Part shown: positions 29,661-49,380 of the stretch, piece after piece | Layout of the letters: the number at the start of each line of letters is the position of its first letter | How positions within the stretch are numbered: position 1 is the first letter of the stretch | Assembly: GCA_964448705.1 (NCBI GenBank) | Contig: CAYUZS010000003.1 | Coordinates: forward strand, 73,384 to 137,383 | Reading direction: 5' to 3' | Length of the DNA: 64,000 nt | Source of the DNA: an uncultured Gammaproteobacteria bacterium | GTDB taxonomy: Bacteria; Patescibacteriota; Microgenomatia; UBA12405 | Position numbers and translations under genes: made by a program | Notes under the pieces: generated by a model | Database searches by the model: none | The model's input: the letters and a program-made list of their open reading frames with translations, nothing else | Told to the model about the DNA's origin: nothing

Positions 29661-30415
29661 TATGCAGATTTTAAATATAATGCCACAGACATTCCGCTGA
29701 TACCTAATAATACCAGAGCCAAAGTTTCCGCAATTCCTCCGGTTTCAGGTAGAGTTTCTGCCGTTGTATTGGCTGTAGTTGGTGTTGCAGACACTGTATT
29801 GTTAGTTGTGTTGTTTGTTGAAGTTGAAGTCGGGACCGGAGTTAAAGTTGGAGTCGAAGAGGGTGTAGTCGATGATGTTGTTGATGAAGTTATAGTGTAC
29901 GAACCGCTTTGATTCGATGAACAATCCACCACATCATTACCTGATTCATTAATAATATTAGTCTCAGCTACCGAACCGGCTTGACAGACATAATTTAAGG
30001 TCGCCGTCCCAGCTGCTTTTGCCTTAAAAGTAACTTTCAGAAGTTCATGTTTTGCTACCACTCCCACATAGACATTCGAGCTTAATGAAGGCAGTGTCAC
30101 TTCAAATGTTCCGGCAGCGTTATCGATAATCGGTGAACCTGTTGAGTATGTAAATTGATAGCCGTCATCAGGCACATCAGCTTTCACAATCGACACCACT
30201 TCCAGCTTTGAAGCATCAAATGTCGATTTGATATCCAGACCTATTACTTTATCAGCATTGGAATCAACTCCCAAAATTACGTCAAAAGTATCATTCACTT
30301 GTTTTGTCGCCGAAGTCGGATCCAAAGTAAAATGAGGCGCTGCCCAGGCTTTTACTGGAGTCACCGCCATTAAAGCGGCCGCCATCATTATTACTAATAA
30401 TCTTTTAGAATTCAT
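29660..30415 (-). CDS. cohesin-domain surface protein with LPXTG sortase anchor
   Basis: Signal peptide ending AWA. Cohesin-like block FDVILGVDSNADKVIGLDIKSTFDASKLEVVSI. C-terminal LPETG, then a hydrophobic helix and a Lys. Confidence 0.65.
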   Translation of the reverse strand: MNSKRLLVIMMAAALMAVTPVKAWAAPHFTLDPTSATKQVNDTFDVILGVDSNADKVIGLDIKSTFDASKLEVVSIVKADVPDDGYQFTYSTGSPIIDNAAGTFEVTLPSLSSNVYVGVVAKHELLKVTFKAKAAGTATLNYVCQAGSVAETNIINESGNDVVDCSSNQSGSYTITSSTTSSTTPSSTPTLTPVPTSTSTNNTTNNTVSATPTTANTTAETLPETGGIAETLALVLLGISGMSVALYLKSA

Positions 30416-31039
30416 TTATTTTGTCACCCTAACCGATAATTCATTACTTGAGAATGGCAAAACCTTGCTGGTTGCACTCTCTACAAACATAGTAGCAGAT
30501 TCTTTTGACTCATTGCCAGTACTTATTTTGAATGTAAAATCTCCCGATTTTAATGGCTTTACGGAAAAACTCATCAGGTTTAATTCATCATCCTTGTTTA
30601 CAGTTAAACCATCATCTTTAGAGATCAAAAATGTCGCTACTACTAATCCTTTTGTGTCACTGGCTTTACTAAAAACCGGTTCCGGCAAACGATCATCAAA
30701 AGTTAAACCGCTCACGGTAAAAGCCGAAGGATCATATTCCAGATAAACATTGATTGAATCCAAAGATCGATCCTCCTCTGCTTTTGCTTTAACTTCAATT
30801 TTTTCTGCTTTTCCTACAGTCATTTCCTCAGACGTTGCACCCAATTCAATCATATAAATCGGTTCAGTCGAAGTTGGTTTAACTCCTTCTGTTGGCGTAG
30901 AATTATCTACCACCTCACCTTTCCCGATTTTTACCTTGTTTATATTCAAGATCAACATCAGACTTTCTGCTAATACCAGAACTGCTATTACCGGAATAAC
31001 TTTTTTAACCCAATTTTTATTTTTATTGTTCATAATCAA
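30416..31039 (-). CDS. membrane-anchored cohesin-like domain protein
   Basis: N-terminal TM helix. IEVKAKAEEDRSLDSINVYLEYDPSAFTVSGLTF resembles a cohesin. Confidence 0.5.
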   Translation of the reverse strand: MIMNNKNKNWVKKVIPVIAVLVLAESLMLILNINKVKIGKGEVVDNSTPTEGVKPTSTEPIYMIELGATSEEMTVGKAEKIEVKAKAEEDRSLDSINVYLEYDPSAFTVSGLTFDDRLPEPVFSKASDTKGLVVATFLISKDDGLTVNKDDELNLMSFSVKPLKSGDFTFKISTGNESKESATMFVESATSKVLPFSSNELSVRVTK

Positions 31040-31053
31040 GTTTATTTAAACAT

Positions 31054-32277
31054 TTAATATAGCTGACTCTGTCTTTCACTTAACGATAACATCAGCAGAG
31101 ATAAATCCTGGGATTCCAGCTTACAGTTACCGTTCAAATCAGCTAACATATAACCACCTGTCCCAACTTCAGTTCTTTTAATCGATTCAGTCTTTACAAA
31201 AGAAAAGTCCAAACCGTCCACTACTCCATCTTGGCTTTCAGCAGTAGTGCCTGTCACATCGCCGGATAACAACGGATAACCGGTAAAATCAAAATTCTGG
31301 GTCGTCGCGGCGGAATTTGTCAGTCCGGATAATTCCCCTCCGGCTTTTTCGTAATAATCTGACTGATTATTAACTCCGTACTTCACTTGTAAATGTTTTG
31401 GACTCTTCACAAACACAGCCAAATTGTCGGTTGAATTGAAATTTCCCATATCTAATAAGATTTGGTAAACACCCAAACCATTTTTGTTTTCTTCTAGTTT
31501 ATTTGCAATCACATTTTCAAATACTTTGCTGGTGCCATTAGCTGCTCTTACTGTCACAGTTAAAGGCATATCCTGGGCGTCAGTACAATTATAATCAGCC
31601 CTCATTCCCAAAAAAGACATTTTGAATTTTAGTTGTAGACCTGTTTGCGTCGGTACCTGTGTTGGGGTCGGAGATAACGTCATTACTTGTGTTGGAGTCG
31701 GTGATGGTTGTTGTTCATTAACCAGATCCACAATTTCATAGCTTGTTCCCTCAACGCCTGTTACAGTGATATTTTTGTCGGTGTCACTCGCAGAGTTATC
31801 CCCTGTCATCATCGATTTTGTTTTATCAAGTTTTATTAGTCCCGAACCAAGACTGTTGCCTTTAAAAGTCATCGTCAAAGCTTTGCCTGTTGATAATAGT
31901 TGGTCTGCTGATCTCGATGAAGTTACCACTATCGTGGTACAAGTTTGGTCGGCGACATCGTTGGTTGCCATTATCGGACTGTCTCCAAACCCTGATTCAG
32001 TGTTGGGAACAACGCTTTCCAGGCTAATATTTTTTCCGTAACAAACTGTCGTCTGTACTCCGTCAACTTTAGAATCACTGGAAGTGTAATACCATAATTG
32101 TGTTTGGAAAGTACCTCCAACCACATCCCTGATCTTTGCCCCTGGTAAGACTTTCAAAGTTGAAGTGTCAAATGCCGCCCCTTTTCTCATCTCCTGATTT
32201 TGGTTTACCAAAACAAGACCTCCGACTAAAGCGCCTAAAATCAATAGTATTGGCAATATTATTTTCGTTTTTGTCAT
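31054..32277 (-). CDS. membrane-anchored protein with N-terminal cohesin-like and C-terminal dockerin-like modules
   Basis: TM helix then LVNQNQEMRKGA, a cohesin-like N-terminal domain and PT linkers. C-terminus has DGVVDGLDFS and ADLNGNCKLESQDLS. Confidence 0.5.
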   Translation of the reverse strand: MTKTKIILPILLILGALVGGLVLVNQNQEMRKGAAFDTSTLKVLPGAKIRDVVGGTFQTQLWYYTSSDSKVDGVQTTVCYGKNISLESVVPNTESGFGDSPIMATNDVADQTCTTIVVTSSRSADQLLSTGKALTMTFKGNSLGSGLIKLDKTKSMMTGDNSASDTDKNITVTGVEGTSYEIVDLVNEQQPSPTPTQVMTLSPTPTQVPTQTGLQLKFKMSFLGMRADYNCTDAQDMPLTVTVRAANGTSKVFENVIANKLEENKNGLGVYQILLDMGNFNSTDNLAVFVKSPKHLQVKYGVNNQSDYYEKAGGELSGLTNSAATTQNFDFTGYPLLSGDVTGTTAESQDGVVDGLDFSFVKTESIKRTEVGTGGYMLADLNGNCKLESQDLSLLMLSLSERQSQLY

Positions 32278-32283
32278 TTATTT

Positions 32284-34269
32284 TTATAAACCATTTATAA
32301 AGTTTGTTCTCCAAATAGAGATATCATTTATTGTAATCAAACCATCACAGTCAAAATCTGCCCGCCAATCATTTCTATTAACTTCTCCCAGCTGTCCAGT
32401 AATGAATTCTGATCTCCAAATTGATGCATCATTAATGGTGATTGAACCACTGCAGTCAGCATTTCCTTTCCCTTTTGCCGTCGGATCATTGGCGCATTGA
32501 GTACATTTAAGTGGTAAAGCCGGACAGGCAGTCATATCTGTTGTCCAGGTACCGTTGGCTGATGGACAACAATATTGTCTGCCGCCGCAGGATGCTATTA
32601 GTTTTGCAGCACTACAAATTGTTTCATTAGCTGTACCGTCACTATCCGGAGGAGTGCAGCTTCGCAGGACACTTTGATTAAATCCGTTTGCATTAGTAAT
32701 TCCCGGACACTCTTCACGGCAGCTGTTTCCTGATCCTGTTGTTGGTGTTGCTGTTGGTGTTCTTCCGCCACCGGTTGTTGGTGTTGCGGTAGGTAATCTT
32801 ATTGAACCGCTAGTTGGAGTTAATGTTCTGGTTGGGGTTAATGTTCTGGTTGGACTTAATATTCTGGTTGGAGTTGGAGTATTACATGGATGGTCCAACA
32901 GATTTCCACAGCCTGTACCGGAATAATATCCACCAATGCATCTACAAGTTGCTGTCGGCACTGCAGTTACCGTAATTTGTCGACAACATATTCCTCCGGC
33001 AATTATTCCTGTTCTTTCATAGCCGGATCCGCAGTCAGAAATTCCGTATCGGGCCGTTGATCCGCTGGGACATGAACCTGCTAAAGTTGGAGTTGCTGTC
33101 GGTCTGCGTGTCGGAGTTGCTGTTGGTCTGGTTGTCAGAGTCGGAGTTCGTGGTATACAGCATCTTGAAGACGGAGAAGAACAATTGCTTTGTCCGACAT
33201 CAGTTTCTCCGCTGTTGCATGGTGTCCGACACACTCCAGTTGTGCCATTATACTGACAGTTATTCACCGGGGTTTGTTCACAACAAATTCCACCGGCAAT
33301 ATTTCCTGTCTTATCGTAACCCGAACCGCAATCGGAAATTCCGTATCGGGCTGTTGAACCGCTGGGACAAGCTGCTAAATTACAATCACCAGTGGAAGCG
33401 TTACACGAAGTGCTGCAGGTTTTCACAAATGTCCAAAATTTATTTGTCGACATATTGGCCTGGTTACAGTGATACAGATCATTTCCGGTGCATTTATAGG
33501 CATTTAGAGTACTACAAGCTGAAGAAGTTGGGGTCGGAGTTAAAGCTCTACAACAAATTCCCCCGGCAATTGTTCCTTCGTTTTTATATCCGGATCCGCA
33601 GTCTAGAATTCCGTATCGGGCTGTTGAACCGCTGGGACAAGCCGCTAAATTACAATCAGCTATTGAGGAATTACATGAAGTGCTGCAGGTTTTCACAAAT
33701 GTCCAGAATTTATTTGTCGACATGCTGGCTTGATTGCAGTGATAGAGGTCGTTTCCGGTACATTTATAGGTATTAACTGTACTACAAGCTGAAGAAGTTG
33801 GACCTGCCGTCGGTGCTCTGGTCGGAGTTAATGTTGCTGTTGCACAGCTGGAATCACTGACACAATTTGAAGCCGGACAAGCCGAACTGGAATTTATTGT
33901 TACTGTTGAGGAGTTACATTTCCCACTGCCGCAAGTTCTAACTGTACACTGTCTAGTTGCTGGAGTCGCTGTCGGGTTAACTACTGGCCTTTTACAAATA
34001 CAGGTGGCATAAGAACCGGAACCCGTACAGTCTTGCGGAGTAAATCCGGGACAACATGACAAACCGTTAGCATAAGTTCCACCCTCTGGGACACAGTAAG
34101 ACGCCAAATTTCTGGTATCCTGGTTATTTTGCACCAATTTTGTCGCTGCCGGAACCGCAATTGCCATCAGCAATAAGCCAATTAACAGAGGAATTTCTGC
34201 CAAACCTTTATTTTTCTTAAAAAAAACTGAAAACATTTTTTCTTGTAAAGAATGAGTCATTTTCGACAA
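32284..34269 (-). CDS. large Cys-rich repeat surface protein with PT-rich linkers and C-terminal dockerin
   Basis: 661 aa. TM helix then LVQNNQDTRNLA, two 90-aa tandem Cys-rich units and three CPSGSTARYGxxDCGSGY...IAGGICC modules. C-terminal dockerin repeats NADCSGSITINDASIW and DFDCDGLITINDISIW. Confidence 0.6.
   Translation of the reverse strand: MSKMTHSLQEKMFSVFFKKNKGLAEIPLLIGLLLMAIAVPAATKLVQNNQDTRNLASYCVPEGGTYANGLSCCPGFTPQDCTGSGSYATCICKRPVVNPTATPATRQCTVRTCGSGKCNSSTVTINSSSACPASNCVSDSSCATATLTPTRAPTAGPTSSACSTVNTYKCTGNDLYHCNQASMSTNKFWTFVKTCSTSCNSSIADCNLAACPSGSTARYGILDCGSGYKNEGTIAGGICCRALTPTPTSSACSTLNAYKCTGNDLYHCNQANMSTNKFWTFVKTCSTSCNASTGDCNLAACPSGSTARYGISDCGSGYDKTGNIAGGICCEQTPVNNCQYNGTTGVCRTPCNSGETDVGQSNCSSPSSRCCIPRTPTLTTRPTATPTRRPTATPTLAGSCPSGSTARYGISDCGSGYERTGIIAGGICCRQITVTAVPTATCRCIGGYYSGTGCGNLLDHPCNTPTPTRILSPTRTLTPTRTLTPTSGSIRLPTATPTTGGGRTPTATPTTGSGNSCREECPGITNANGFNQSVLRSCTPPDSDGTANETICSAAKLIASCGGRQYCCPSANGTWTTDMTACPALPLKCTQCANDPTAKGKGNADCSGSITINDASIWRSEFITGQLGEVNRNDWRADFDCDGLITINDISIWRTNFINGL
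33256..33795 (-). repeat. two tandem ~270-nt coding repeats inside the Cys-rich protein gene
   Basis: aa 159-248 and aa 249-338 are near-identical. DNA blocks such as ATTCCGTATCGGGCTGTTGAACCGCTGGGACAAGC recur. A third partial copy lies at 32983-33072. Confidence 0.85.
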
Positions 34270-41420: not shown

Positions 41421-43297
41421 AGTTATCTTCATCGCTCACAGTCGCAGTTATCACCTGTCGTCGTCCCAAACTTCTTAAACGTTGTCTTTTTAGTTTTTTA
41501 AAACAAAAAACTGCTTTAAGAATTATTATTATTGACAACGATTATCAACAGACTTCAAAAAAAATTTGTCAATCATTCTCAAAAAAGCTGTCTTTAAAAT
41601 ACTTGGTCTGTCCGATAAAAAGTATCCCCAGGGCAAGAAGTTTAGCCATTGAATCCTGTGAAACTAATTATTTGGCTTTTATCGACGACGATTGCTGTAT
41701 CGATCGTCACTGGTCAGAAATTGCCCGGGAACTCATTTCCGCCAATCCAAACACCGCCTATTGGCAGGGACAAACTTATCCTCCCGCCAAACCTTCCTTG
41801 CTTGATTCTGCCCATTTCCAAATCTATTCCCAATGGCTGCTTCATCCCCACCAGGGATTGGATACAAAAAATATCATTATTAATTTATCTGTGGTCAAAA
41901 AATATCATCTTTCTTTTGACCCCAACTTTCCAATCTTTGAGGATATAGATTTTGGCCTTCAACTGAATCAGCATCATCTTTCCGGAATGTTTATCCCTAA
42001 ATTAATAGTCAGCCACCATGAATATATAAAATTGTTCCCATTAATCCGAAAATATTTTTATCGCGGTCAAATCAAATTTGCTATCAATCAAAAATGGGGC
42101 AATTTTGATAACTATCAGCCTACTCTCGACTTCTTTACCATCATTAAAAAATTAGCTACCAACTTTTTCAAAGCACTTCTGGAAATTTCATTTGACTCTG
42201 GTTTCAAATATGCCCAAAAGTATCAGATTCTTCCCAACGACAACCATCTTTCTATAATAAATCGCCATGACCGGGGAGCCAACCAAGAACGCCTTGAAGC
42301 CATAACTAATTTTCTCCACAAAAACAATTTTCAGGTAACCAATATTGATTCGGAAAAAATTCTTCTCGATTGCCAATTGCATCGACGTCAGTTCTTAAAA
42401 GAAAATCCCCTAGCCTACCTATTAATTCATTTATCTCTACTTAATAATCCACCTTTCAGATATTTTTTTAGCCTACTTCTTCGCGGTTATCTTCTCAATT
42501 TTTATCTTCATCGTTTGCATACCAAAAAAGTAATTTCTCAATATTCCGAAGACATTTTTGTCGCCATATATCCACACCGCTTTCAACTTATCCTTGATTT
42601 ACCGACCATTTTTTCTGAAGAATTAAAACTCAGTCACCGGCTGCCTCTACCGATTATTAATATAATAACCCGTCTGGAAAACCTCGCCTATTCCAAAGCC
42701 GATCATACTTGCTTCCATTGGTCCGGCTTTCTTAATTATGCACGTAAAATTGGAAAAAAAATTCCAAACAGTTTTATCCTCAACTGGGGGTGTAATTCAG
42801 TTTCAAAAGTAGCTGTATTTAAAAAACATCCCAAAATAATTTATCTTGGCGATTTTACTTCACCTTGGACCAATCCCTCATTACTACTCAGACTGCAGAA
42901 AACATCTTCTATCGACATTTTTAGCTATCAAACTTCATCCAAATTTAAAACCAAAGGCTATTTAAAAAATCTCCAAAAACTCAGCCTTTATCAATTTGGT
43001 CTAATAACTATCACCAATGATCCGCTCAGAAACAATGGTTTTTCTGCCAAGTACTTAAAATATCTTGAGCATGGTCTACCGGTTCTTTGCCCTGAATGGC
43101 GTCGGGATCCCCTGCTAAAACCAGCCACCATTTACTATAATGAAAGAAATTTTGTCAAACAGCTTAAAAAATATTCTCAAAAAAAACTTTGGTTAAAAAA
43201 ACACCAAGCTGCCCTAAGAATTTCCAAAAATTTAAATTGGAACAAAACTCTACTTCCATTGTTACCGAAAATTAATTCATCTAAAAATGAATATTAG
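41417..43297 (+). CDS. GT2-family glycosyltransferase fused to a ~350-aa uncharacterised C-terminal domain
   Basis: N-terminal VAVITCRRPKLL...IIIIDND...AFIDDDC (GT-A DxD). The C-terminal half was not recognised. Confidence 0.65.
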   Translation: MKLSSSLTVAVITCRRPKLLKRCLFSFLKQKTALRIIIIDNDYQQTSKKICQSFSKKLSLKYLVCPIKSIPRARSLAIESCETNYLAFIDDDCCIDRHWSEIARELISANPNTAYWQGQTYPPAKPSLLDSAHFQIYSQWLLHPHQGLDTKNIIINLSVVKKYHLSFDPNFPIFEDIDFGLQLNQHHLSGMFIPKLIVSHHEYIKLFPLIRKYFYRGQIKFAINQKWGNFDNYQPTLDFFTIIKKLATNFFKALLEISFDSGFKYAQKYQILPNDNHLSIINRHDRGANQERLEAITNFLHKNNFQVTNIDSEKILLDCQLHRRQFLKENPLAYLLIHLSLLNNPPFRYFFSLLLRGYLLNFYLHRLHTKKVISQYSEDIFVAIYPHRFQLILDLPTIFSEELKLSHRLPLPIINIITRLENLAYSKADHTCFHWSGFLNYARKIGKKIPNSFILNWGCNSVSKVAVFKKHPKIIYLGDFTSPWTNPSLLLRLQKTSSIDIFSYQTSSKFKTKGYLKNLQKLSLYQFGLITITNDPLRNNGFSAKYLKYLEHGLPVLCPEWRRDPLLKPATIYYNERNFVKQLKKYSQKKLWLKKHQAALRISKNLNWNKTLLPLLPKINSSKNEY

Positions 43298-44360
43298 TAA
43301 AAAAATTAAATCAACCGGAATCAATCTCTCCATTTGGTGGCAGAATCTTTTAATAAAAGTCTCTCTCAATCTTAATAAACCTCTAAACAAACCTACTTCC
43401 ATTACTTTTGACCTAACTCCAAATTGTGTTCTAAAATGCAAGCAATGCGATATTTGGAAAAGTCCTCCAGAAACACAACTCTCACTAAAAGAAGCTAAAA
43501 TTATCATTGACCGGCTTCACTCTTGGTTAGGTAGTTGCTACCTCTTTTTTACCGGCGGTGAACCGTTAACAAACACAGACCTACCCGAAATAATTGGTTA
43601 TGCCTACAGAAAAGGCATCCTTTCTCACATCAACAGTAATGCCGTCCTGATAGACAAGTCACTGGCAAAAAAACTCACTCTAAACCACCTTTATGCTATT
43701 TCCATCTCTCTTGATGGGGCTACAGCCAAAACTCACGATTATCTCCGTGGTGTTTCAGGAACATTCGATAAAGTCATCAAAGCTATTAATTATCTTCAAA
43801 AAACAACTCATTCTCCTAAAATTTACATCAATACAGTCATAATGAAAAATAACACTATGGAATTAGAAAAATTAATAGAACTAACCAAAAAATACCACAC
43901 TAACGGCATTATGTTTCAATGTTTACTTCCCAATCTCGGACAAAACAGTGTCAAAGCTATTTCCAAAAACAATCCTTTATGGCCAAACAAAACTAAAATT
44001 ACAGCCGTTATAAAAAGGATTATCCAAAAAACCTCTTCTGAACCTCTTATTCTAAGTTCCAAACAGGATTTGGAAACCTCTCTGAAATATTATAAAAATC
44101 CCGGACTATTTAATAAATTTGTCTGTGCCGCCGGAATAAATAATTTTATTGTTGATCATCATGGAGACGTTAGGCTTTGTTTCGACTTTCCTGCTATCGG
44201 AAATATTATCAGGGAAAACCCCCAATCTATCTGGTGGAGCCAAAAAGCTGTTACCCAGCGTCAACAAATCCGCCACTGTCAACGAAATTGCAAGCTTATT
44301 GCCTGTAACAAAGCTGATACTGCCAGAAATAAAACTGTCGCTGCTAATCTTTTTGAATAA
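43287..44360 (+). CDS. radical SAM enzyme with SPASM/twitch-like C-terminal Cys cluster
   Basis: CVLKCKQC (CxxxCxxC) at aa ~46-53. C-terminal CAAG...GDVRLC...HCQRNCKLIAC. Confidence 0.75.
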   Translation: MNISKKIKSTGINLSIWWQNLLIKVSLNLNKPLNKPTSITFDLTPNCVLKCKQCDIWKSPPETQLSLKEAKIIIDRLHSWLGSCYLFFTGGEPLTNTDLPEIIGYAYRKGILSHINSNAVLIDKSLAKKLTLNHLYAISISLDGATAKTHDYLRGVSGTFDKVIKAINYLQKTTHSPKIYINTVIMKNNTMELEKLIELTKKYHTNGIMFQCLLPNLGQNSVKAISKNNPLWPNKTKITAVIKRIIQKTSSEPLILSSKQDLETSLKYYKNPGLFNKFVCAAGINNFIVDHHGDVRLCFDFPAIGNIIRENPQSIWWSQKAVTQRQQIRHCQRNCKLIACNKADTARNKTVAANLFE

Positions 44361-45015
44361 TTCCTACTCCCGGATCCTCTAATATCTCGAATAGTTTGTA
44401 TTTTCCTGAGTCTTTAATTTCTTTCCAAAATTTTCTGGTTCCATAAAAGTTTCCATCCTTGTCCGGACTTCCGATATCATGGATCGCCAAAAATCCGCCT
44501 TTTTCCACATTCTGCCAGAACATTTCAAAATCTTTTTTCACCCCTGTATAAGAATGGTCGCCGTCAATATGAACGTAACCATATTTTATTTTTTCATTTT
44601 TTGCGTAATATTCATCTGATTTCATCACCCTCAATTTTATATACTTCTCCAAACCAAATTTTCCAAAATGTTTTTTTTCATCTACCTTCTTCCAAAAACC
44701 AACTCCTCCCCAATGTTCTCCAGCAACTTTATCATAATCATCCATATCAAATCCGGCATCAACAAAATCAACTAAACCCATCCCGTTATCTTTGCACGCC
44801 AAAGCGCATACGGCCGGAATATATCCGTATTTACTGCCAACACATAGTACCTTATCCGGTCTGATTTGCCTAATCAGTGAATAATGGATCCAGCCATAAC
44901 CTAAACCTCCCCGATTGTTATCCCAGTGATGCCAATTGTCATCTTTTGCATAATTCTCAATAAATTTCCTGACATTTTTCTTATCTATTAAATCTTTTGT
45001 CCCGCTGAATATCAT
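44344..45015 (-). CDS. class I SAM-dependent methyltransferase (Methyltransf_24/CmcI-like)
   Basis: VLCVGSKYGY...VHIDGDHSYTGVKKDFEMFWQNVEKGGFLAIHD. Confidence 0.55.
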   Translation of the reverse strand: MIFSGTKDLIDKKNVRKFIENYAKDDNWHHWDNNRGGLGYGWIHYSLIRQIRPDKVLCVGSKYGYIPAVCALACKDNGMGLVDFVDAGFDMDDYDKVAGEHWGGVGFWKKVDEKKHFGKFGLEKYIKLRVMKSDEYYAKNEKIKYGYVHIDGDHSYTGVKKDFEMFWQNVEKGGFLAIHDIGSPDKDGNFYGTRKFWKEIKDSGKYKLFEILEDPGVGIIQKD

Positions 45016-45041
45016 TCTCCATTATAATACTATCATTCTCT

Positions 45042-46196
45042 ATGCTTTCAACCTTCTTCAAATCATCTCCATCCAAACCAATCGACTTTTCTTTTTTTCC
45101 CTCCTTAAATCAAAATCTTTTTATCCATTCCACCCCTTTTTTTCTAACAAATAAATCAATTGTAAAAAATCGTTTACTAGAACTGCATCAAACAATGTCT
45201 CAATTTCACCTGGCTCAGGCAAAAATTGCCTACTCATTCAAAACCAATTACGACGTCGCCAAAAATATCAGATTTGACATGGCTGAAGTTGTTTCTCAAA
45301 GAGAATTAAAAATGTCACTCCATAATCACTACCATTATTCACAAATTATTTTTAATGGACCAAACAAAGGCAATTTTCTTCCACTTTTGTACCGTCCAAT
45401 CACTCTCAACCTTGACCATTTTTCTGAAATTGAAAATCTTCCTCCATACTCCTCAAAAATAACCGCTAAAATTGGTCTCCGTTTTAACTCACTCTCCTCA
45501 CCTAGTCGTTTTGGCTTCAATCTTGAAAACGGCCAAGCCAGCCAAGCATTTTCTCTTTTAAAACAGAAAAAATACCCCCTTTCCGGAATCCACTTTCATC
45601 TTGGCAGCGATATTCAAAACTCTGACCTCTATCAGCAATGTTCTCTGGCCATTTCTTCCTTCATCAAAAAACACCATCTCTTTGCTGACCTTGTTTATAT
45701 CGACTTTGGTGGTGGTTTTCCCTCACACGGTTTAATCCACCAAACCGACATCCAATCTTTACCAAAGATATCGAATTATATTAATAGTATCGTTCAACCA
45801 CTGTCCAAAATTGTTGATTTTTCTAAGACAGAAATTATTCTGGAACCCGGTAGATATTTAGTCGACGACTCAACTGTCATGATAACCAAAGTTCTTAGCA
45901 CTATTGAAACTAGTAACCATCAGTTAATTACTGTCGATGCTGCAAACACTATGTTGCCCTCAACATGGTATCGACGCCATCTAATCAAAAATTTATCTGC
46001 GAATAATAACTTTAAAACTATAGAAACAATTATTTATGGCAGCAGCTGCCAGGAAACAGACATTTTATATCGCGGAAAATTCCAAAAGGTTTCTATTGGA
46101 GACCTTCTTGTTTTTTATTGTGTTGGTGCCTACAATCAAAGTCAAACTTCTTCGTTTATTTTTAATAAACCCAAAACCTATTTTATATATGACTAA
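45042..46196 (+). CDS. PLP-dependent decarboxylase, Orn/DAP/Arg decarboxylase (fold III) family
   Basis: AYSFKTNYD (PLP Lys), HFHLGS, DFGGGFP, EPGRYLV and GSSCQETD. Confidence 0.75.
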   Translation: MLSTFFKSSPSKPIDFSFFPSLNQNLFIHSTPFFLTNKSIVKNRLLELHQTMSQFHLAQAKIAYSFKTNYDVAKNIRFDMAEVVSQRELKMSLHNHYHYSQIIFNGPNKGNFLPLLYRPITLNLDHFSEIENLPPYSSKITAKIGLRFNSLSSPSRFGFNLENGQASQAFSLLKQKKYPLSGIHFHLGSDIQNSDLYQQCSLAISSFIKKHHLFADLVYIDFGGGFPSHGLIHQTDIQSLPKISNYINSIVQPLSKIVDFSKTEIILEPGRYLVDDSTVMITKVLSTIETSNHQLITVDAANTMLPSTWYRRHLIKNLSANNNFKTIETIIYGSSCQETDILYRGKFQKVSIGDLLVFYCVGAYNQSQTSSFIFNKPKTYFIYD

Positions 46197-46950
46197 AAGA
46201 TTTAATCACCACTATTTTACCCTCCTCTCTGTTATGACCAAAACAGAGTTTATGAGCCGTTACAAAAGGGCTATTTTTGGTTTTCTATGGTTGTTTCTTA
46301 ACCCACTCTTTCAAATGCTAATCATCGGTACTGTCTTCTCTCACTTTATTAGTCTTCCAAACTACTATTTGTTCCTCTTTGGAGGTCTCCTTTTATGGCA
46401 GTTCTTTTCCTCCTCAATCACCAAATCAACCTATAGCTTTGTTTCTAACCGAAATCTGCTTCAAAAAACTCCTTTTCCTTTAGAAATAATCCCTATCTCT
46501 ATTATTCTTGCTGATTATATTAATCTACTCTTTTCCCTTCTGCTTTTTCTAACGACCACCGCCTTTGTAACTGGTCTCTCCTTAAAAGCTCTCTTGATTA
46601 TTCCCATTCTGCTATGGCTGCTGACTTTCTCAGTTGCTTTCTCCTTAATCACTTCTACTCTTAATGTTCGTTTCCGCGATACCAACTTTTTTGTTAACAC
46701 TCTTCTCATGCTTTGGTTTTATGCCACTCCCATCCTCTATCAAACCAACAGTCTACCTGGGTTTCTACAAAAATATCTGATTATCAATCCTTTGGCTTCA
46801 CTTTTCTCCCTATTTCATTATATTTTCTTTAATGCTCCTTTTCCAAACACTATTCTTATAATCACTAATCTTTTTACCACCATTGTAATCTTATTTTTAG
46901 GTATTTTTCTTTTCCGAAAAAATTACTCCTATTTTGTTGATTGGTTATAA
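46189..46950 (+). CDS. ABC-2 type polysaccharide/teichoic-acid exporter permease (Wzm/TagG-like)
   Basis: Start at MTKRF (ATGACTAA overlap), FMSRYKRAIFGFLWLFLNPL signature and 6 TM helices. Confidence 0.75.
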   Translation: MTKRFNHHYFTLLSVMTKTEFMSRYKRAIFGFLWLFLNPLFQMLIIGTVFSHFISLPNYYLFLFGGLLLWQFFSSSITKSTYSFVSNRNLLQKTPFPLEIIPISIILADYINLLFSLLLFLTTTAFVTGLSLKALLIIPILLWLLTFSVAFSLITSTLNVRFRDTNFFVNTLLMLWFYATPILYQTNSLPGFLQKYLIINPLASLFSLFHYIFFNAPFPNTILIITNLFTTIVILFLGIFLFRKNYSYFVDWL

Positions 46951-46954
46951 AACT

Positions 46955-47956
46955 ATGTCAAAAGTTATTAAAATAAAACATTTATCCAAAAAATATTCTC
47001 TTCATTCTTCAAAACCCACTTTGATTGAACAGTTAAACCCAAAAGATAAAATTTACTGGGCTCTTAAAGACATTAACCTTACTGTAGAATCCGGAGAACG
47101 TGTCGGTTTTTTTGGTCCAAACGGTGCTGGTAAAACTACTCTACTCAAAATAATTTCCCACATTACCACTCCTGCTTCAGGAACAGTCACCACTAGTGGA
47201 AAAATAATTTCTCTAATTGAATTAACCGCTGGTTTTGACCAAGAGCTTACCGGTTATGAAAATATCAAACTTCAATTGGCACTTATGGCCGATTTCAATC
47301 AGGACCAAACCTCTCAGGTTATTTCAGACTGTATAAATTTTTCGGAACTATCAGATTTTATTCATCAACCGCTTTATACCTATTCCTCCGGTATGATTCT
47401 TCGTCTGGCTTTTTCGATTGCAACAGTCATTCCTGCTGATATTTTCATCGTTGACGAATTTTTGGCAGTTGGGGACACCGAATTTAAAAGTAAATGTGCC
47501 GAATATTTCAATCAACTTAAACTAAGTCATAAGACTATTCTTGCCTCCTCTCACGATCTTCAATGGCTGATTTCTTTTTGTGATAAGGTATACCCTATCA
47601 ATCATGGTCGCCTTGATCGGGAAAATTTTGTCACCCCCCAACATCTGGAATTCTTTCGGCGATCCCTCCAAAAAAACAGTTCTTCTGTCACGGTTACTAC
47701 CGGCAGTATGCTACCAACTCTTAATATTGGTCAGGTTGTTCCAATTAAAAATATCTCTTTCTCTAAAATAAAACCCGGCGACATTATTGCCTTCATGTTT
47801 ACCAATTTTCCTCAACCTATTGTTCATCGGGTAATCGCCATTGGCATCAACAACCGCCAACCTATTTTAGTTACCAAAGGAGACGCCCACAGCCAACCGG
47901 ACTCCTGGATGGTCACCAAAAAAGAATATCTTGGAATTATTCAATTTAATCACTAA
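46955..47956 (+). CDS. ABC transporter ATP-binding protein (Wzt/TagH-like) fused to a C-terminal S26B (archaeal/SipW-type) signal-peptidase domain
   Basis: Walker A GPNGAGKTT, signature YSSGMILRLAF and Walker B IFIVDEFLAVGD. C-terminal ~100 aa carry TGSMLPTL, PGDIIAF, IVHRVI and TKGDAHSQPD. Confidence 0.75.
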   Translation: MSKVIKIKHLSKKYSLHSSKPTLIEQLNPKDKIYWALKDINLTVESGERVGFFGPNGAGKTTLLKIISHITTPASGTVTTSGKIISLIELTAGFDQELTGYENIKLQLALMADFNQDQTSQVISDCINFSELSDFIHQPLYTYSSGMILRLAFSIATVIPADIFIVDEFLAVGDTEFKSKCAEYFNQLKLSHKTILASSHDLQWLISFCDKVYPINHGRLDRENFVTPQHLEFFRRSLQKNSSSVTVTTGSMLPTLNIGQVVPIKNISFSKIKPGDIIAFMFTNFPQPIVHRVIAIGINNRQPILVTKGDAHSQPDSWMVTKKEYLGIIQFNH

Positions 47957-48914
47957 GTCTGTCCTTTATTTTCACATACATTGTCTCCCAAAACTCGCCT
48001 AACTTTTCAGCACTTTTCCTTATTCCTAGCCGAAGTTTCATCTCTGGAAATATCTTTTCAGTCATTTTTTCTTTCTTCCGTGAAATTTTCATTCTTTCAA
48101 AAACATCCGCCCTTTGTTTACAGGAAGAACATACCCCGCAAGGATACTTGTTTCCATTTGTACAGCTCCAAGTCTTTTCCAAAGGCAGACAATATTTTTT
48201 TCCCATTTCTACCACCTCTTCTTTTTCCATCCAGTTTCCAAACTGAGGCTCAAAAAATAGTGAATAATATTCAAAATTGGTATCGTCTCCAATCTCCCGA
48301 ATCAAATCTTGATATAACCTAATTCGGCTTAATGTCTGGCCTTTTATGGTTAACCCGTCAGTCGGTAATATCGCGGTTAAAATTGTCTTTACGGTTATAT
48401 CGTACCGGTATTTCAAATAAAAAGAATATTGTAATGCATAAATTGGGTATTGATAGAGAATATCCGGCAATAACCAAAACGACATCTTATTATTTACTAC
48501 TTGTGACAATAAATATTTATGATGAAAAAATTTTCCTGGTTTAATCATCCTGTATTCTTCCAAAATATTAGCAGGATAGGTATAAACATCCATTTCTTTT
48601 ACCGGCCAACTTAAACCCGGATATTTTTTTTGAAAATATTTATCAAAAAATTTCACCGATCTAGTGCTACCATTAAGGTTACCTCTCGTATATTTCTGTC
48701 TAATATAAACCGGATACACTTTTGTTCCATTACAAAGTAGATATTCCCATAACACAGTCGAGTCGATGCCTCCGGAAACCAACAGTATCGCCTCGTCCAA
48801 ATTCAAGTAATCTTTTAAGTTTCTATTTATTTCACTTTTATCAACTTTTTCAATCGGATTATCTTTTAACCTCTTTCGAAATTCACTTGAAGAAATCCTT
48901 GCTATTTGATTCAT
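47946..48914 (-). CDS. QueC/ExsB-like PP-loop ATPase
   Basis: PP-loop LLVSGGIDST. C-terminal QueC-type Cys cluster TWSCTNGNKYPCGVCSSCKQRADVF. Large insertions relative to QueC. Confidence 0.6.
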   Translation of the reverse strand: MNQIARISSSEFRKRLKDNPIEKVDKSEINRNLKDYLNLDEAILLVSGGIDSTVLWEYLLCNGTKVYPVYIRQKYTRGNLNGSTRSVKFFDKYFQKKYPGLSWPVKEMDVYTYPANILEEYRMIKPGKFFHHKYLLSQVVNNKMSFWLLPDILYQYPIYALQYSFYLKYRYDITVKTILTAILPTDGLTIKGQTLSRIRLYQDLIREIGDDTNFEYYSLFFEPQFGNWMEKEEVVEMGKKYCLPLEKTWSCTNGNKYPCGVCSSCKQRADVFERMKISRKKEKMTEKIFPEMKLRLGIRKSAEKLGEFWETMYVKIKDRLSD

Positions 48915-49186
48915 TTTTCTTCTCTAATTATCCCAGTTTTAATACCTTTTTTCAAAAAAGACTTCACATCTTCCCTCGCCTCATCTTTTTCCACCTTATA
49001 GTGTTTATATAAAAAACTAACCATTTCTTCGATACTTTTTGGACTAACCAACAACTTCCATAAATCCACTGCCGTCCCTGAAAGAATCGTAATTCTCGAC
49101 TCACCTTCCACCGCAATCAACACCTCATCATTTCGATACTCGGAATAACATTTCTCCACCTTAACAAAAACATCCCTATCTCTCAT
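48911..49186 (-). CDS. PqqD-family peptide-binding protein (RiPP recognition element)
   Basis: 91 aa. ILSGTAVDLWKLLVSPKSIEEMVSFLYKHYKVEKDEAREDVKSFLKKGIKTGII matches the PqqD pattern. Confidence 0.7.
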   Translation of the reverse strand: MRDRDVFVKVEKCYSEYRNDEVLIAVEGESRITILSGTAVDLWKLLVSPKSIEEMVSFLYKHYKVEKDEAREDVKSFLKKGIKTGIIREEK

Positions 49187-49201
49187 GTTTTCCCATCCTT
49201 T

Positions 49202-49345
49202 TTATCTCGCACAAGCACAGGACGCACAGACACATGATCCATCGGGACACTGTTTGGGTGTTTCTCCACCACATGCCAAAACAGAATTTAAAGAAATCAC
49301 TTTAATCATCGGTTTTTGATAATCATTCCTATTTTGTTGCACCAT
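49202..49345 (-). CDS. candidate RiPP precursor peptide MVQQNRNDYQKPMIKVISLNSVLACGGETPKQCPDGSCVCASCACAR
   Basis: Hand-translated 47-aa ORF, below the track cutoff. Six Cys in the last 23 residues. Lies 15 nt upstream of the PqqD gene. Confidence 0.5.
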   Translation of the reverse strand: MVQQNRNDYQKPMIKVISLNSVLACGGETPKQCPDGSCVCASCACAR

Positions 49346-49351
49346 AAAATA

Positions 49352-49380
49352 AATATACAAAAACCTTATCTTAAATGCAA
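49352..49380 (-). promoter_or_regulatory. sigma70-like promoter TTGCAT-17nt-TATATT, ATG 7 nt after the -10 (leaderless)
   Basis: Read on the minus strand immediately upstream of the 47-aa ORF. Confidence 0.4.

Follow-up and report, generated by a model that had tools for sequence, protein, structure and literature searches.

The question raised by this locus is whether three adjacent minus-strand genes of the window (the whole stretch of 64,000 nucleotides analyzed here), encoding a short peptide, a PqqD-family protein, and a PP-loop ATPase resembling QueC, act together on a ribosomal peptide, and by which chemistry. The sequence-only reading had put them forward as a candidate for an undescribed RiPP-type system. 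We consider, at a probability of about 0.6, that the locus is a maturation and export cassette for a ribosomal peptide related to lasso peptides and to the 'linear polyphosphorylated peptide' (LPP) RiPP clusters of Bacillota (Popov et al., Nat Commun, May 2026, PMC13381572), with a QueC-family ATP pyrophosphatase as its key enzyme. The same gene kit was found in 25 other loci, so it most likely stands for a family of modified ribosomal peptides that has not been described before. The genes, their conservation, and the families to which they belong come from sequence and comparison; binding of the leader by the RRE, the place of cleavage, and every chemical step are inferred.

The small ORF (49202..49345, minus strand) runs from the ATG at 49345 to a stop at 49204-49202 and encodes a peptide of 47 aa, MVQQNRNDYQKPMIKVISLNSVLACGGETPKQCPDGSCVCASCACAR. 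Its coordinates, the 15 nt between its stop and the PqqD gene start, the overlap of the PqqD stop with the QueC-like ATG as ATGA, and the 11-nt overlap between the 3' ends of the QueC-like gene and the convergent ABC ATPase gene were all confirmed, as was the placement of the six Cys (residues 25, 33, 38, 40, 43, and 45) within the last 23 residues. The predicted leader comprises residues 1-24 (49274-49345, minus strand) and the predicted core residues 25-47 (49205-49273, minus strand). The leader contains Y9-Q-K-P12 (49310..49321, minus strand), which fits the [Y/W]xxP motif bound by the RREs of lasso B1 and LppB (PMC13381572) and would be the RRE-binding site; the motif was present in 26 of 26 aligned precursor candidates.

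Several comparisons indicate that the small ORF is a real gene. When the window and L007 peptides were left out of the training of a leader HMM, its search through all 2009 six-frame segments of the window placed the small ORF at the top (E = 0.09), and in loci outside the training set the leader HMM matched exactly between the QueC-like and PqqD genes (E = 3e-5). Related precursor pairs carried synonymous change in excess: the six pairs compared differed by 40 synonymous and 40 nonsynonymous codons, and the pair from L015 and L016 by 12 versus 5. The idea that a short ORF would always adjoin the enzyme and co-vary with it was also largely borne out. Of the 26 loci inspected (the window and 25 others, mostly from ultra-small (CPR) bacteria), 24 had an ORF for a homologous Lys-rich YxxP peptide next to the QueC-like and PqqD genes, and the type of peptide followed the enzyme clade.

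The 91-aa product of the second gene (48911..49186, minus strand) matched Pfam PqqD well above the cutoff (E = 3e-11, 43.9 bits versus 23.4), in agreement with the family named earlier. Its top NCBIfam match was lasso_PqqD_Bac, and its top PDB sequence matches were LppB (9x8z), TbiB1, PbaB1, and TfuB1. D70, F74, and Y60 of LppB aligned with D73, F77, and Y63 of the window protein, in which the Tyr-binding Asp and the Phe packing against Pro are kept. Judged by these matches, the protein is a discrete RiPP recognition element (RRE) of the lasso/LPP type. It would bind the precursor through the Y9-x-x-P12 leader and hand the peptide to the QueC-like enzyme.

The third product, of 322 aa (47946..48914, minus strand), proved to be a PP-loop ATPase with a QueC-type cysteine cluster, as had been claimed. 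It contains the PP-loop S47GGIDS52 (48759-48776, minus strand) and the zinc cysteines C251, C259, C262, and C265 (48120-48164, minus strand), and matches Pfam QueC above the gathering score (E = 5.9e-14), the aligned part being residues 228-275 only. Homology to canonical QueC (7-cyano-7-deazaguanine synthase, TIGR00364) extends across the full QueC length (hhalign 99.9 %, E = 4.7e-35), with the SGGxDS motif, a conserved Lys, and the zinc cysteines retained. The Pfam match and the kept motifs would also suit ordinary queuosine metabolism, with a divergent QueC making preQ0 and a PqqD gene and small ORF that are unrelated to it, or an ORF that is no gene. We regard this account as scarcely credible, and the preQ0-making candidate was largely refuted. 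The protein scored 44 bits against the TIGR00364 cutoff of 150, lacks all three CDG-pocket motifs (YxQxHxxE, the RN of VPxRN, and YPDC), and is about 100 residues longer than QueC. In the family, the QueC-like and PqqD proteins are encoded by neighbouring genes or as one fused protein of about 410-430 aa; the fusion was confirmed in L001, and of the 216 representatives found at E ≤ 1e-30, roughly one in three among the best 145 has a fusion length (400-440 aa). The conservation and co-variation of the small ORF also argue against preQ0 synthesis, and the Pfam families of queD, queE, and queF were absent among the called neighbours in six Pfam-annotated contexts. The earlier concern that the 322-aa protein might group with bona fide QueC can thus largely be set aside, as its sequence indicates that it is not a canonical QueC.

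Cap9, a QueC-like ligase that modifies protein, was the nearest match of the 322-aa protein both among solved structures and by PDB sequence. QueC and Cap9 adenylate a carboxylate that is then attacked by an amine, the Cap9 substrate being a polypeptide. Amidation, lactam formation, and base attachment had been put forward as possible reactions and are candidates here. In our preferred reading, the enzyme would use ATP to form an adenylated carboxylate and then an amide-type bond 16-22 residues past the leader Tyr, a segment that would be the C-terminus of the 20-30-aa precursor in most members and Glu28 or the core start in the window. The peptide's own carboxylate (the C-terminal alpha-COOH or a Glu side chain) would be activated and capped by ammonia or by an amine from the co-encoded PLP decarboxylase. 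There is precedent in PesC of the nitrilobacillins, a glutamine-dependent asparagine-synthetase (AS)-like PP-loop enzyme through which the C-terminal carboxylate of a RiPP becomes an amide and then a nitrile (PMC13060819). The likeness would lie in a PP-loop enzyme that uses ATP to act on a precursor carboxylate, with chemistry that is formally that of QueC; however, PesC falls outside the QueC clade, has no PqqD partner, and belongs with another precursor family and other accessory enzymes (MNIO and alpha-KG-HExxH).

All characterized members of the QueC/Cap9/QatC clade adenylate the carboxylate of CDG and take the amine from the polypeptide, which counts against activation of a peptide carboxylate. 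The window enzyme may accordingly be read the other way round, as adenylating the carboxylate of a small molecule (an aromatic acid, 7-carboxy-7-deazaguanine, or some other base-like acid) and transferring it onto the side chain of a Lys or onto the N-terminus freed by the S26 cut, to give an N-acylated or nucleobase-tagged peptide; we hold this to be unlikely, yet a credible possibility. Besides the proximity to Cap9, polypeptide N-termini are the targets of both Cap9 and QatC, and QatC, in which the canonical CDG motifs are likewise remodelled, is still proposed to use CDG. Both Cap9 (type IV CBASS) and QatC (QatABCD) share the PP-loop and Zn-ribbon with the window enzyme and set a precedent for a QueC fold working on polypeptide. 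A conserved peptidase would free a new alpha-amine near the RRE, a UPRTase gene adjoins the L007 cassette, and the shikimate-pathway and AMP-binding genes of the L018, L019, L022, and L023 cassettes are a possible acid source. Two in-family enzymes, in L013 and L020, lack an RRE, a peptide, and an S26 partner and lie among nucleoside-metabolism (including salvage) or glycan genes, which also weighs against the RiPP-cassette reading as a whole. The loss of three of three CDG-pocket motifs tells against such a transfer, as does the absence of queD/queE/tgt-like genes from the annotated loci. Moreover, Tyr+16, the predicted new N-terminus, is highly variable and includes Pro, whereas Cap9 and QatB substrates have a Gly motif. 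The window also differs from these systems in having no CD-NTase, Cap10/TGT, QatA, QatB, or QatD partner, in an enzyme with about 100-140 additional residues, including a long C-terminal helix, in a putative substrate (a small peptide that carries a leader and would be brought by an RRE), and in a setting of biosynthesis and export rather than a defence island.

The constant precursor length past Tyr, which transfer onto an amine leaves unexplained, fits the preferred activation of the peptide's own carboxylate. The C-terminus lay at Tyr+18..+22 in 18 of 19 short precursors, and at Tyr+16 in that of L017. The window precursor ends at Tyr+38 instead of about Tyr+20, so the argument from a fixed distance to the C-terminus is only indirect for the window. 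Its candidate modification site is Glu28 (Tyr+19; 49262..49264, minus strand); the L018 peptide stops exactly at the equivalent residue (…VVLAPSGE* versus …SVLACGGE-TPKQ… in the window). An acidic residue occupied one of the positions Tyr+16..+20 in 14 of 21 precursors of the short or Cys type (20 from the alignment and that of L091). Asp and Glu were absent from 7 of these 21 cores, 6 of which had Lys at Tyr+19..+21, so one side-chain target cannot suit all members.

Most precursors are 20-30 aa long and Cys-free, and a C-terminal Cys-rich extension was found in one subclade (the window, L007, and L091). The Cys-rich peptide, offered earlier as a feature of the system, is therefore a trait of that subclade and not family-wide. 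The 19-residue Cys-rich tail would probably be cross-linked or oxidized separately, possibly by the radical SAM/SPASM enzyme encoded nearby (43287..44360, plus strand). This enzyme, whose CxxxCxxC begins at residue 47, has no N-terminal RRE of its own and may act as an additional tailoring enzyme on the Cys-rich core. Its membership in the cassette is uncertain: its gene shares orientation with upstream glycosyltransferase genes, and among the related loci a weak match was found in L028 only.

The lasso-type RRE and YxxP leader also raise the possibility that the QueC-like enzyme stands in for the asparagine-synthetase-like lasso cyclase after leader removal. It would then close a macrolactam in which an adenylated Glu/Asp or C-terminus is joined to a Lys or to the freshly exposed N-terminus. 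The lasso cyclase is itself a PP-loop enzyme that adenylates a carboxylate, and the set of A, B1, protease, ATP-dependent PP-loop enzyme, and ABC exporter mirrors lasso clusters (A, B1, B2, C, D), with a B1-type PqqD RRE, a [Y/W]xxPx[L/V/I] leader, and leader removal that would likewise be coupled to carboxylate adenylation. Glu is frequent at Tyr+17..+20. Such a ring is nevertheless very improbable, as it would span 2-5 residues in most members (Glu at core position 2-5), whereas lasso rings comprise 7-9; in the window core, Glu is residue 4 and Asp residue 11, and acidic residues are missing from several cores. The cores do not obey the lasso ring rule (an acidic residue at position 7-9), and those of most members, predicted to be just 3-7 residues, are too short for a lasso and have no tail for threading; some predicted N-termini are Pro. 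In addition, the window has an S26 domain in place of the transglutaminase-like B2 protease of lasso clusters, and a QueC-family enzyme in place of their asparagine-synthetase-like cyclase.

This S26 domain forms the C-terminal part of a Wzt-type ABC ATPase (46934..47956, plus strand; the true start is probably ATG 46955). The claimed fusion of an ABC ATPase with a signal peptidase was supported by matches to TIGR02228 (archaeal-type signal peptidase I, sigpep_I_arch; 70.3 bits, cutoff 51.85) and Peptidase_S26 (24.8 bits, cutoff 22.9). The catalytic residues S258 (47705-47707), H298 (47825-47827), and D317 (47882-47884), all on the plus strand, were invariant across 16 homologous domains, and related loci repeat the fusion or have an adjacent S26 gene. 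In the preferred reading, the cytoplasmic S26 domain would, after the modification steps, cut the leader past V-L-A24, at V22-L23-A24/C25 (Tyr+13..Tyr+16; 49271..49282, minus strand), and the Wzm/Wzt-type transporter would export the product. Tyr+15 was Ala in 12 of 26 aligned precursors. In LPP clusters, experiments identified a homologous SpI-like peptidase as the leader peptidase, which depends on the RRE and cleaves LppA 16 residues past Tyr (Tyr = -16) (PMC13381572); by analogy, the register of the V-L-A cut suggested earlier agrees with this mapped site.

The permease (46189..46950, plus strand; ABC-2, Wzm-type) matched Pfam ABC2_membrane (E = 7e-19) and NCBIfam Wzm/RfbD-like models; its first possible start is 46036, ATG 46189 is more likely, and it was conserved in 11 related loci. 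The nearest relatives of the ATPase are A. aeolicus Wzt and TarH/TagH. The S26 domain occupies the place where the 404-aa A. aeolicus Wzt chains run past the NBD, an extension that in Wzt is a carbohydrate-binding domain. The window cassette sits inside a surface-glycan locus (Bac_transf, Wzy_C, PMT-like GT-C, WecG/TagA, GT4s, and GT2). A transporter that most resembles exporters of glycans and teichoic acids counts against the RiPP-cassette reading, and so do the 3-7-residue cores of most members, which are unusual for a secreted RiPP. These observations would suit a cassette that is part of the surrounding surface-polysaccharide pathway, in which the QueC-like enzyme ligates the short peptide to a sugar amine or carboxylate on a lipid-linked glycan and the Wzt-S26 exporter reads the leader instead of a glycan cap, cleaves during export, and leaves a short peptide stub on the polymer. 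Relatives of the cassette also lie within glycan loci, L020 retains the Wzm, Wzt, and QueC-like genes with no peptide, and LPP clusters too occur in capsule loci, and their final products could not be found (PMC13381572). The support for this account, which we rate as distinctly improbable, comes purely from context; RiPPs are also exported by ABC-2 transporters, and location in capsule loci may mean co-regulation only. We know of no ribosomal peptide joined to a glycan by a PP-loop enzyme.

The three genes described earlier recur, but the cassette is larger, comprising precursor, RRE, QueC-family ATPase, Methyltransf_24, often a PLP decarboxylase, the ABC-2 permease, and S26. The SAM-dependent methyltransferase (44344..45015, minus strand; Pfam Methyltransf_24, E = 1.3e-14), which would add a methyl group after amide-type bond formation, is its most conserved accessory gene, with homologues at E = 1e-43 to 1e-71 in L007, L012 (two copies), L017, L018, L019, L022, L023, and L028, and others in L091 (41 % identity) and L092/L093. 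Its best PDB match was weak (6g7d, E = 0.001); 6g7d is a sugar O-methyltransferase, a point for peptide-glycan conjugation. The PLP-dependent decarboxylase (Orn/DAP/Arg fold III; 45042..46196, plus strand), the first gene of the exporter operon, has homologues in L012 and L010, and L018 has a non-homologous fold-I PLP decarboxylase at the equivalent position.

The window cassette resembles LPP clusters in its discrete lasso-type RRE, which would bind a YxxP leader, in a predicted cytoplasmic, RRE-dependent leader peptidase of the archaeal (SipW-like) signal peptidase I type with a Ser/His/Asp triad and a predicted cut about 16 residues past Tyr, and in a dedicated exporter within capsule or glycan loci. 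L001-type relatives also have the HprK-like (ScmC) and NTP_transf_5 genes typical of LPP, whereas the window has no HprK-like kinase or NTP transferase among the genes scanned at 29.6-50.5 kb and no extended LPP leader motif (xVLxHQxIxFETxxS). The window peptidase is fused to a Wzt-type ABC ATPase, whereas that of LPP is a free protein; the exporter is of Wzm/Wzt type instead of MsbA type; hosts are mostly Patescibacteria instead of Bacillota; and the conserved partner of the RRE is a QueC-family enzyme, which is absent from the LPP paper (PMC13381572). The earlier claim of an undescribed system thus stands in part: RRE-dependent SpI-like leader peptidases in capsule loci are already known from the LPP family, published in 2026 (PMC13381572), and the new part is the QueC-family enzyme as RRE partner together with the Wzt-S26 fusion. 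No description of a QueC-like RiPP-cassette enzyme or of a Wzt-S26 fusion was found in the searchable literature.

Upstream of the precursor gene, the promoter-like sequence TTGCAT-17-TATATT (49352..49380, minus strand) is present with the spacing reported before, about 6-7 nt between the -10 element and the ATG. However, such sites were not above chance in the region (6 observed versus 6.5 expected from shuffles), so the proposed leaderless transcript is a plausible reading only. A similar layout was found in L018 (TTGACA-17-TAGCAT-10-ATG), and L091 has a normal AGGAG Shine-Dalgarno site.

The cassette occupied ~44.3-49.35 kb of the window, an extent drawn from the components that are conserved across related loci, and lay at the end of a glycan locus (34.3-44.4 kb) encoding Bac_transf, a Wzy_C-family protein, a PMT-like GT-C, WecG/TagA, three GT4s, a GT2, and an rSAM/SPASM protein. 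On the minus strand, a 47-codon ORF read from the sequence (MVQQNRNDYQKPMIKVISLNSVLACGGETPKQCPDGSCVCASCACAR, 49345 to 49202) was followed after a 15-nt gap by a gene encoding a 91-aa PqqD protein (49186 to 48911, minus; Pfam PqqD, E = 3e-11), which overlapped by ATGA with a gene encoding a 322-aa QueC-like protein (48914 to 47946, minus; Pfam QueC, E = 5.9e-14, matching the last ~50 residues only). The 3' end of the latter overlapped by 11 nt with a convergent gene on the plus strand (46934-47956) encoding an ABC ATPase with a C-terminal S26 domain, whose C-terminal ~100 residues scored above the curated cutoffs for Peptidase_S26 and for the archaeal-type signal peptidase I model TIGR02228 (70.3 bits vs 51.85). 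The domain searches thus agreed with the PqqD, QueC-like, and ABC ATPase plus S26 assignments made in the earlier sequence-only reading. The promoter proposed there (TTGCAT-17-TATATT) was present but not above chance, with six promoter-like matches against 6.5 expected from shuffled sequences, so that a leaderless transcript is at most plausible.

The listed start of the ABC ATPase ORF was TTG 46934, and homology to TagH/Wzt began at residue 8; therefore, ATG 46955 is the likelier start, with which the apparent overlap with the permease gene disappears. The genes for a methyltransferase (minus) and a PLP decarboxylase (plus) were divergent with 26 nt between the start codons (45016-45041), so that their promoters must sit within the adjacent coding regions. 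The rSAM and methyltransferase genes were convergent and overlapped by 17 nt. Additionally, a row of predicted secreted or surface proteins was encoded at 29660-34269 (minus), including a protein with a cohesin domain (29660-30415) and a Cys-rich one of 661 aa that contains long internal repeats and has no Pfam match (32284-34269).

A word-indexed protein search with the QueC-like protein returned only four true homologues (P0002 to P0005), including a QueC-PqqD fusion. The neighborhood was repeated on their contigs, with PqqD, an ABC-2 permease, and, in convergent orientation, an ABC ATPase carrying an S26 domain. Eighteen further family loci (L011-L028) were obtained by scanning one genome per species; their enzymes scored 145-365 bits with the family HMM, and other QueC-like genes scored 84 bits or less. 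The hosts were mostly MAGs of Patescibacteria, Microgenomates, and Pacebacteria, together with some MAGs labelled as uncultured Gammaproteobacteria or Pseudomonadales. These relatives point to a Patescibacteria-type genome as the probable source of the window. Almost every one of the loci had an ORF of 20-46 aa, Lys-rich at its N-terminus and containing a Y-x-x-P motif, beside or between the QueC-like and PqqD genes. At locus L007, whose enzyme was 42 % identical to that of the window, a 56-aa ORF directly upstream of PqqD (…KVYVSPQLRVIKLDSMLAACETSQKTCPDGYCTCKTCACPL) was clearly homologous to the window peptide. The precursor candidates, 26 of which were aligned from 22 cassettes in addition to those of L091 and L092-L094, shared a conserved leader and a variable core.

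With the window and L007 peptides left out of the leader HMM, the window ORF ranked first of 2009 six-frame segments in the 64-kb window (E = 0.09). The same model found MKSYQKPTI(R/K)KVKIVAYAIIEE exactly between the QueC-like and PqqD genes of L092-L094, loci outside the training set (E = 3e-5). Six precursor pairs differed by 40 synonymous and 40 nonsynonymous codons (12 vs 5 in L015/L016), a synonymous excess far above the neutral-drift expectation, and the groups in a neighbor-joining tree of the QueC-like enzymes followed peptide type. Judged by its recurrence, by these three controls, and by the tree, the small ORF is a real, conserved gene; a lack of such an ORF in homologous loci, which the sequence-only reading had named as grounds for refutation, was not what the comparison showed.

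The distance from the leader Tyr (Y9 of the window peptide) to the C-terminus was nearly constant, ranging from Tyr+18 to Tyr+22 in 18 of 19 short precursors; the remaining one, from L017, ended at Tyr+16. The enzymes of the window, L007, and L091 formed a separate subclade, and their peptides matched the short type, represented by that of L018 (MKKYIKPRVKVIDLKVVLAPSGE), up to a Glu (window …KVISLNSVLACGGE vs L018 …KVIDLKVVLAPSGE-stop). Beyond this Glu, they carried a Cys-rich extension with six Cys in the window, six in L007, and ten in L091, where the tail was acidic. The Cys-rich tail singled out by the sequence-only reading therefore exists as a feature of one subclade and is not a hallmark of the system. 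A scan of metagenomes with the window-subclade alignment gave no match. The L091 enzyme, 38 % identical to that of the window, was its closest further relative, and the 68-aa precursor of this locus (L091:572-778) had a strongly acidic 10-Cys core (CEDCTVDADCEGYCESQDCYVYDCYSNECDCGECD). The C-x-x-x-D spacings in this core resemble those of ranthipeptide precursors.

Three pairs of contigs, each pair from one MAG (L015+L018, L016+L021, and L017+L028), showed that a single MAG can carry two distinct cassettes, both encoding a QueC-like enzyme of their own. The peptide types differed between the two cassettes of one MAG (e.g., …INFAFAAAKT of the Lys type and …VVLAPSGE of the Glu type).

The best NCBIfam match of the window PqqD protein was the lasso B1 chaperone model lasso_PqqD_Bac, at 36 bits against a cutoff of 80, and its best PDB sequence matches were, in order, LppB (9x8z, E = 0.015), TbiB1, PbaB1, and TfuB1, all of which are discrete RREs crystallized with [Y/W]xxP leaders. 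The window leader carries this motif as YQKP. In a phmmer alignment, D70, F74, and Y60 of LppB corresponded to D73, F77, and Y63 of the window protein; D70 of LppB hydrogen-bonds the leader Tyr and F74 packs on the Pro (PMC13381572). Across the family, the RRE was either a separate protein or a C-terminal fusion to the enzyme. The S26 domain was found as a free protein or as the fusion partner of the ABC ATPase or of an NTP_transf_5 protein, and its Ser (SM.P), His (HR), and Asp (GD) were invariant in 16 instances (S258, H298, and D317 in the window). Fusion to a nucleotide-binding domain places the window S26 domain in the cytoplasm.

A direct experimental precedent for the RRE and the peptidase is provided by the linear polyphosphorylated peptide (LPP) clusters of Bacillota, which lie within capsule loci (Popov et al., Nat Commun, May 2026, PMC13381572). 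In these clusters, LppS is a SipW-like archaeal-type signal peptidase I (S29, H68, D93) whose leader cut requires the RRE LppB, and the YxxP Tyr is residue -16, i.e., the cut follows Tyr+15 (PMC13381572). By this register, cleavage of the window leader is predicted after Ala24 (V-L-A/C), the same site that the sequence-only reading derived from the signal-peptidase rule, and Ala occupied Tyr+15 in 12 of 26 aligned precursors. By analogy with LPP and lasso systems, we infer that the RRE binds YQKP and that the S26 domain cuts after Ala24.

The window further resembles LPP clusters in its discrete RRE with the Tyr-binding Asp, its YxxP leader, as well as a signal peptidase I of the archaeal type with Ser/His/Asp, here a predicted peptidase domain fused to the ABC ATPase. 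However, neither an HprK-like kinase nor an NTP transferase was found among the window genes at 29.6-50.5 kb, the leader does not have the extended LPP motif xVLxHQxIxFETxxS, and the exporter is most like the Wzm/Wzt type instead of MsbA-like; these three differences rule out assignment of the window as an LPP cluster. ScmC (HprK-like) and NTP_transf_5, typical of LPP and paeninodin clusters, do occur in relatives of the L001 type, where NTP_transf_5 is fused to S26. Their presence in these relatives shows an evolutionary continuum.

A B1-type RRE and a [Y/W]xxP leader are also features of lasso peptide systems. A canonical lasso cluster was ruled out, as neither the B2 transglutaminase-like peptidase nor the asparagine-synthetase-like cyclase was found among the window genes at 29.6-50.5 kb or the called neighbors of annotated relatives, and the lasso core rule (Asp/Glu at 7-9 plus a tail) was not followed by the window core CGGETPKQCPD…, with Glu at 4 and Asp at 11. 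Most predicted cores of the family comprised 3-7 residues. Ring size makes a lasso-type macrolactam an unlikely product.

The window ABC ATPase had its best NCBIfam and PDB matches to TagH/Wzt (E about 1e-48), although its 165 bits fell far below the equivalog cutoffs of 538 and 320. In place of the C-terminal carbohydrate-binding domain of Wzt, its C-terminal 100 residues form the S26 peptidase domain. Conjugation of the peptide to a glycan is a rival reading of low probability. It is prompted by the Wzt/TagH-like ATPase, by the S26 domain's location at the point where the A. aeolicus Wzt chain continues past its NBD, by the glycan-locus setting, and by predicted cores of 3-7 residues. Also of low probability is a further reading in which a QueC-family peptide ligase would join an RRE-delivered mini-peptide to a base-like or aromatic acid or to a lipid-linked surface glycan, with the Wzt-S26 protein serving as a 'cut-and-export' machine. 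If this were true, the leader peptide would stand in for the glycan cap as the export signal, and CPR bacteria would use genetically encoded peptide stubs to decorate their surface polymers or to build small conjugates.

A profile search of 1.84 billion representatives identified 216 relatives of the QueC-like enzyme at E <= 1e-30 (50 % identity representatives), and about a third of the best 145 of these were 400-440 aa long, the length of the PqqD fusions. An AlphaFold2 model from five sequences (pLDDT 59) was set aside for a confident model from the 145-sequence alignment (pLDDT 89.4). This QueC-like fold was nearest to Cap9, in agreement with Foldseek. A profile-profile alignment to true QueC covered the whole QueC length (probability 99.9 %, E = 4.7e-35). 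The PP-loop S47GGIDS52 and the zinc Cys residues C251, C259, C262, and C265 were invariant in the 145 family members, and the conserved Lys K231 was kept as well. According to a 2026 study of PF06508, YxQxHxxE, VPxRN, YPDC, and a Tyr after the first Zn Cys line the 7-carboxy-7-deazaguanine (CDG) pocket and are essential (PMC13329287). In the profile-profile alignment, these motifs fell opposite non-conserved family positions, the remnants being just the Pro of VPxRN and an Asp upstream of YPDC (D186). TIGR00364 gave 44.3 bits against a cutoff of 150.3 and aligned with residues 228-268 only. None of the queD, queE, queF, and tgt Pfam families was found among the Pfam-annotated neighbors of L001-L010 and L091-L094, and none of these genes was present in the window at 29.6-50.5 kb. 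A bona fide QueC beside que genes, named in the sequence-only reading as one of the findings that would count against it, was thus ruled out by the TIGR00364 score, the missing pocket motifs, and the annotated neighborhoods.

The pattern in this family is similar to that of QatC, a 'divergent specialist' with a remodelled pocket. Cap9 and QatC are QueC folds acting on polypeptides, and Cap9 ligates CDG to the N-terminal amine of its CD-NTase partner. A Cap9-like transfer of an acyl group or a base onto the peptide would be in line with this fold; it is a rival reading of fairly low probability here. In Cap9/QatC systems, a substrate with a flexible N-terminal Gly motif takes CDG, whereas the predicted new N-terminus in the window family is variable (C, A, P, R, I, F…). 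A defense system (Qat or CBASS type IV) was ruled out: PADLOC matched its generic QueC model only, with a QatC match for P0005 alone (E = 0.007), and no CD-NTase with Cap10 or QatA/B/D partners were found, the neighbors being PqqD, ABC, methyltransferase, and decarboxylase genes.

In-family QueC-like enzymes (259-269 bits) were also found at L013:5466-9299 and L020:6365-9420, where a search for PqqD/RRE, S26, and a YxxP peptide found none. The L013 gene neighbored cytidylyltransferase, PNP_UDP_1, PRTase, HD_3, and GNAT genes, and the L020 gene lay after a Wzm and Wzt pair (no S26) and before an HD-domain gene. These two loci appear to represent a sister branch that has no RRE and is linked to nucleoside metabolism or glycan export.

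The ABC-2 permease was a conserved component of the cassette, and, among the accessory genes, the Methyltransf_24 methyltransferase was conserved best, with E = 1e-43 to 1e-71 in comparisons between loci. A PLP decarboxylase was often present, of fold III in the window, L012, and L010 and of the unrelated fold I in L018. The second-best NCBIfam match of the window decarboxylase was FslC, annotated as N-citrylornithine decarboxylase, in whose substrate the ornithine is already acylated. The rSAM/SPASM gene occurred only in the window among the compared loci, apart from a weak match in L028, and is accordingly unsupported as a core component; any tie to the Cys-rich core would be a guess.

Taken together, comparison of the loci shows that a precursor, a lasso/LPP-type RRE, a QueC-family ATPase, a methyltransferase, an S26 domain, and an ABC-2 exporter make up a conserved cassette, which supports the RiPP interpretation put forward earlier, with corrections to the significance of the promoter and to the Cys tail as a hallmark. 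The RRE would bind the YQKP leader, and the cytoplasmic S26 domain would cut after Ala24. From the chemistry of its family, the QueC-like enzyme would adenylate a carboxylate at the expense of ATP, followed by attack of an amine. The constant Tyr-to-C-terminus distance is an argument for enzyme action 16-22 residues past the Tyr, and the frequent RRE-enzyme fusion points in the same direction. We favor the reading in which the enzyme would activate a carboxylate of the peptide itself (the C-terminus of short members, or Glu28 as its equivalent in the window), which would then be capped with ammonia or an amine. This preference draws on the acidic residue that 14 of 21 precursors of the short or Cys type carry at Tyr+16 to Tyr+20, on the two unrelated PLP decarboxylase folds at the same cassette position, on the FslC match, and on the precedent of an AS-like PP-loop enzyme recently shown to convert the C-terminal acid of a RiPP to an amide and then a nitrile. 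Against it, all characterized QueC-clade enzymes adenylate a small molecule and not a protein, an acidic residue is missing from seven cores (six of which have a Lys at Tyr+19 to Tyr+21), and the in-family enzymes of L013 and L020 lack an RRE, a peptide, and S26, their neighbors being nucleoside-salvage genes or a plain Wzm/Wzt pair.

RiPP systems that pair a lasso-type RRE with an SpI-type leader peptidase within capsule loci are already known in their general logic, the last element only since May 2026. What appears to be new is a QueC-family enzyme as an RRE-coupled tailoring enzyme, whose family comprises a few hundred clusters at 50 % identity, the fusion of Wzt and S26 for 'cut-and-export', and the very short YxxP precursors with their concentration in CPR bacteria. 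No paper linking QueC-like enzymes with PqqD, RREs, or RiPPs was found in the searchable literature, and the PF06508 survey made no mention of such a QueC-PqqD cluster. QueC-family enzymes were long held to serve 7-deazaguanine metabolism only, until protein modification was described in two phage-defense systems in 2025-26; the window family would be a third, independent recruitment and the first QueC fold coupled to an RRE, probably representing a new RiPP class-defining reaction. The family is concentrated in Patescibacteria/CPR, where very few natural-product pathways are known. The cassette also broadens the recent idea of signal-peptidase-type leader peptidases, and its ribosomal peptides are physically tied to Wzm/Wzt-like exporters of the glycan type, which may help explain the elusive LPP/paeninodin products in capsule loci. 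With short precursors (20-30 aa) and a three-gene core, the system is readily testable by co-expression and mass spectrometry.

Several variant cassettes were also observed. The L001 locus contained two QueC-PqqD fusion genes, a free PqqD, ScmC (HprK-like), and an FAD_binding_4 oxidase, along with two precursor types (…ATDY and …LLATKAKETV), and its S26 domain was fused to an NTP_transf_5 nucleotidyltransferase and not to the ABC ATPase (L001:4289-5551). At L023:5374-11053, the cassette was followed by genes for DAHP synthase, 3-dehydroquinate synthase, type I dehydroquinase, and two weak AMP-binding-like enzymes, and gene sizes in L018, L019, and L022 were similar to those of this stretch. 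The L023 genes may encode the synthesis of an aromatic or cyclitol acid for attachment to the peptide. In L092 (1700-2845) and L093 (2558-3703), an AAA_14/DUF4143 ATPase gene was located between the ABC-2 permease and the ABC ATPase; the ABC ATPase of these loci had no S26 domain, and a free 172-aa S26 gene lay downstream on the opposite strand.
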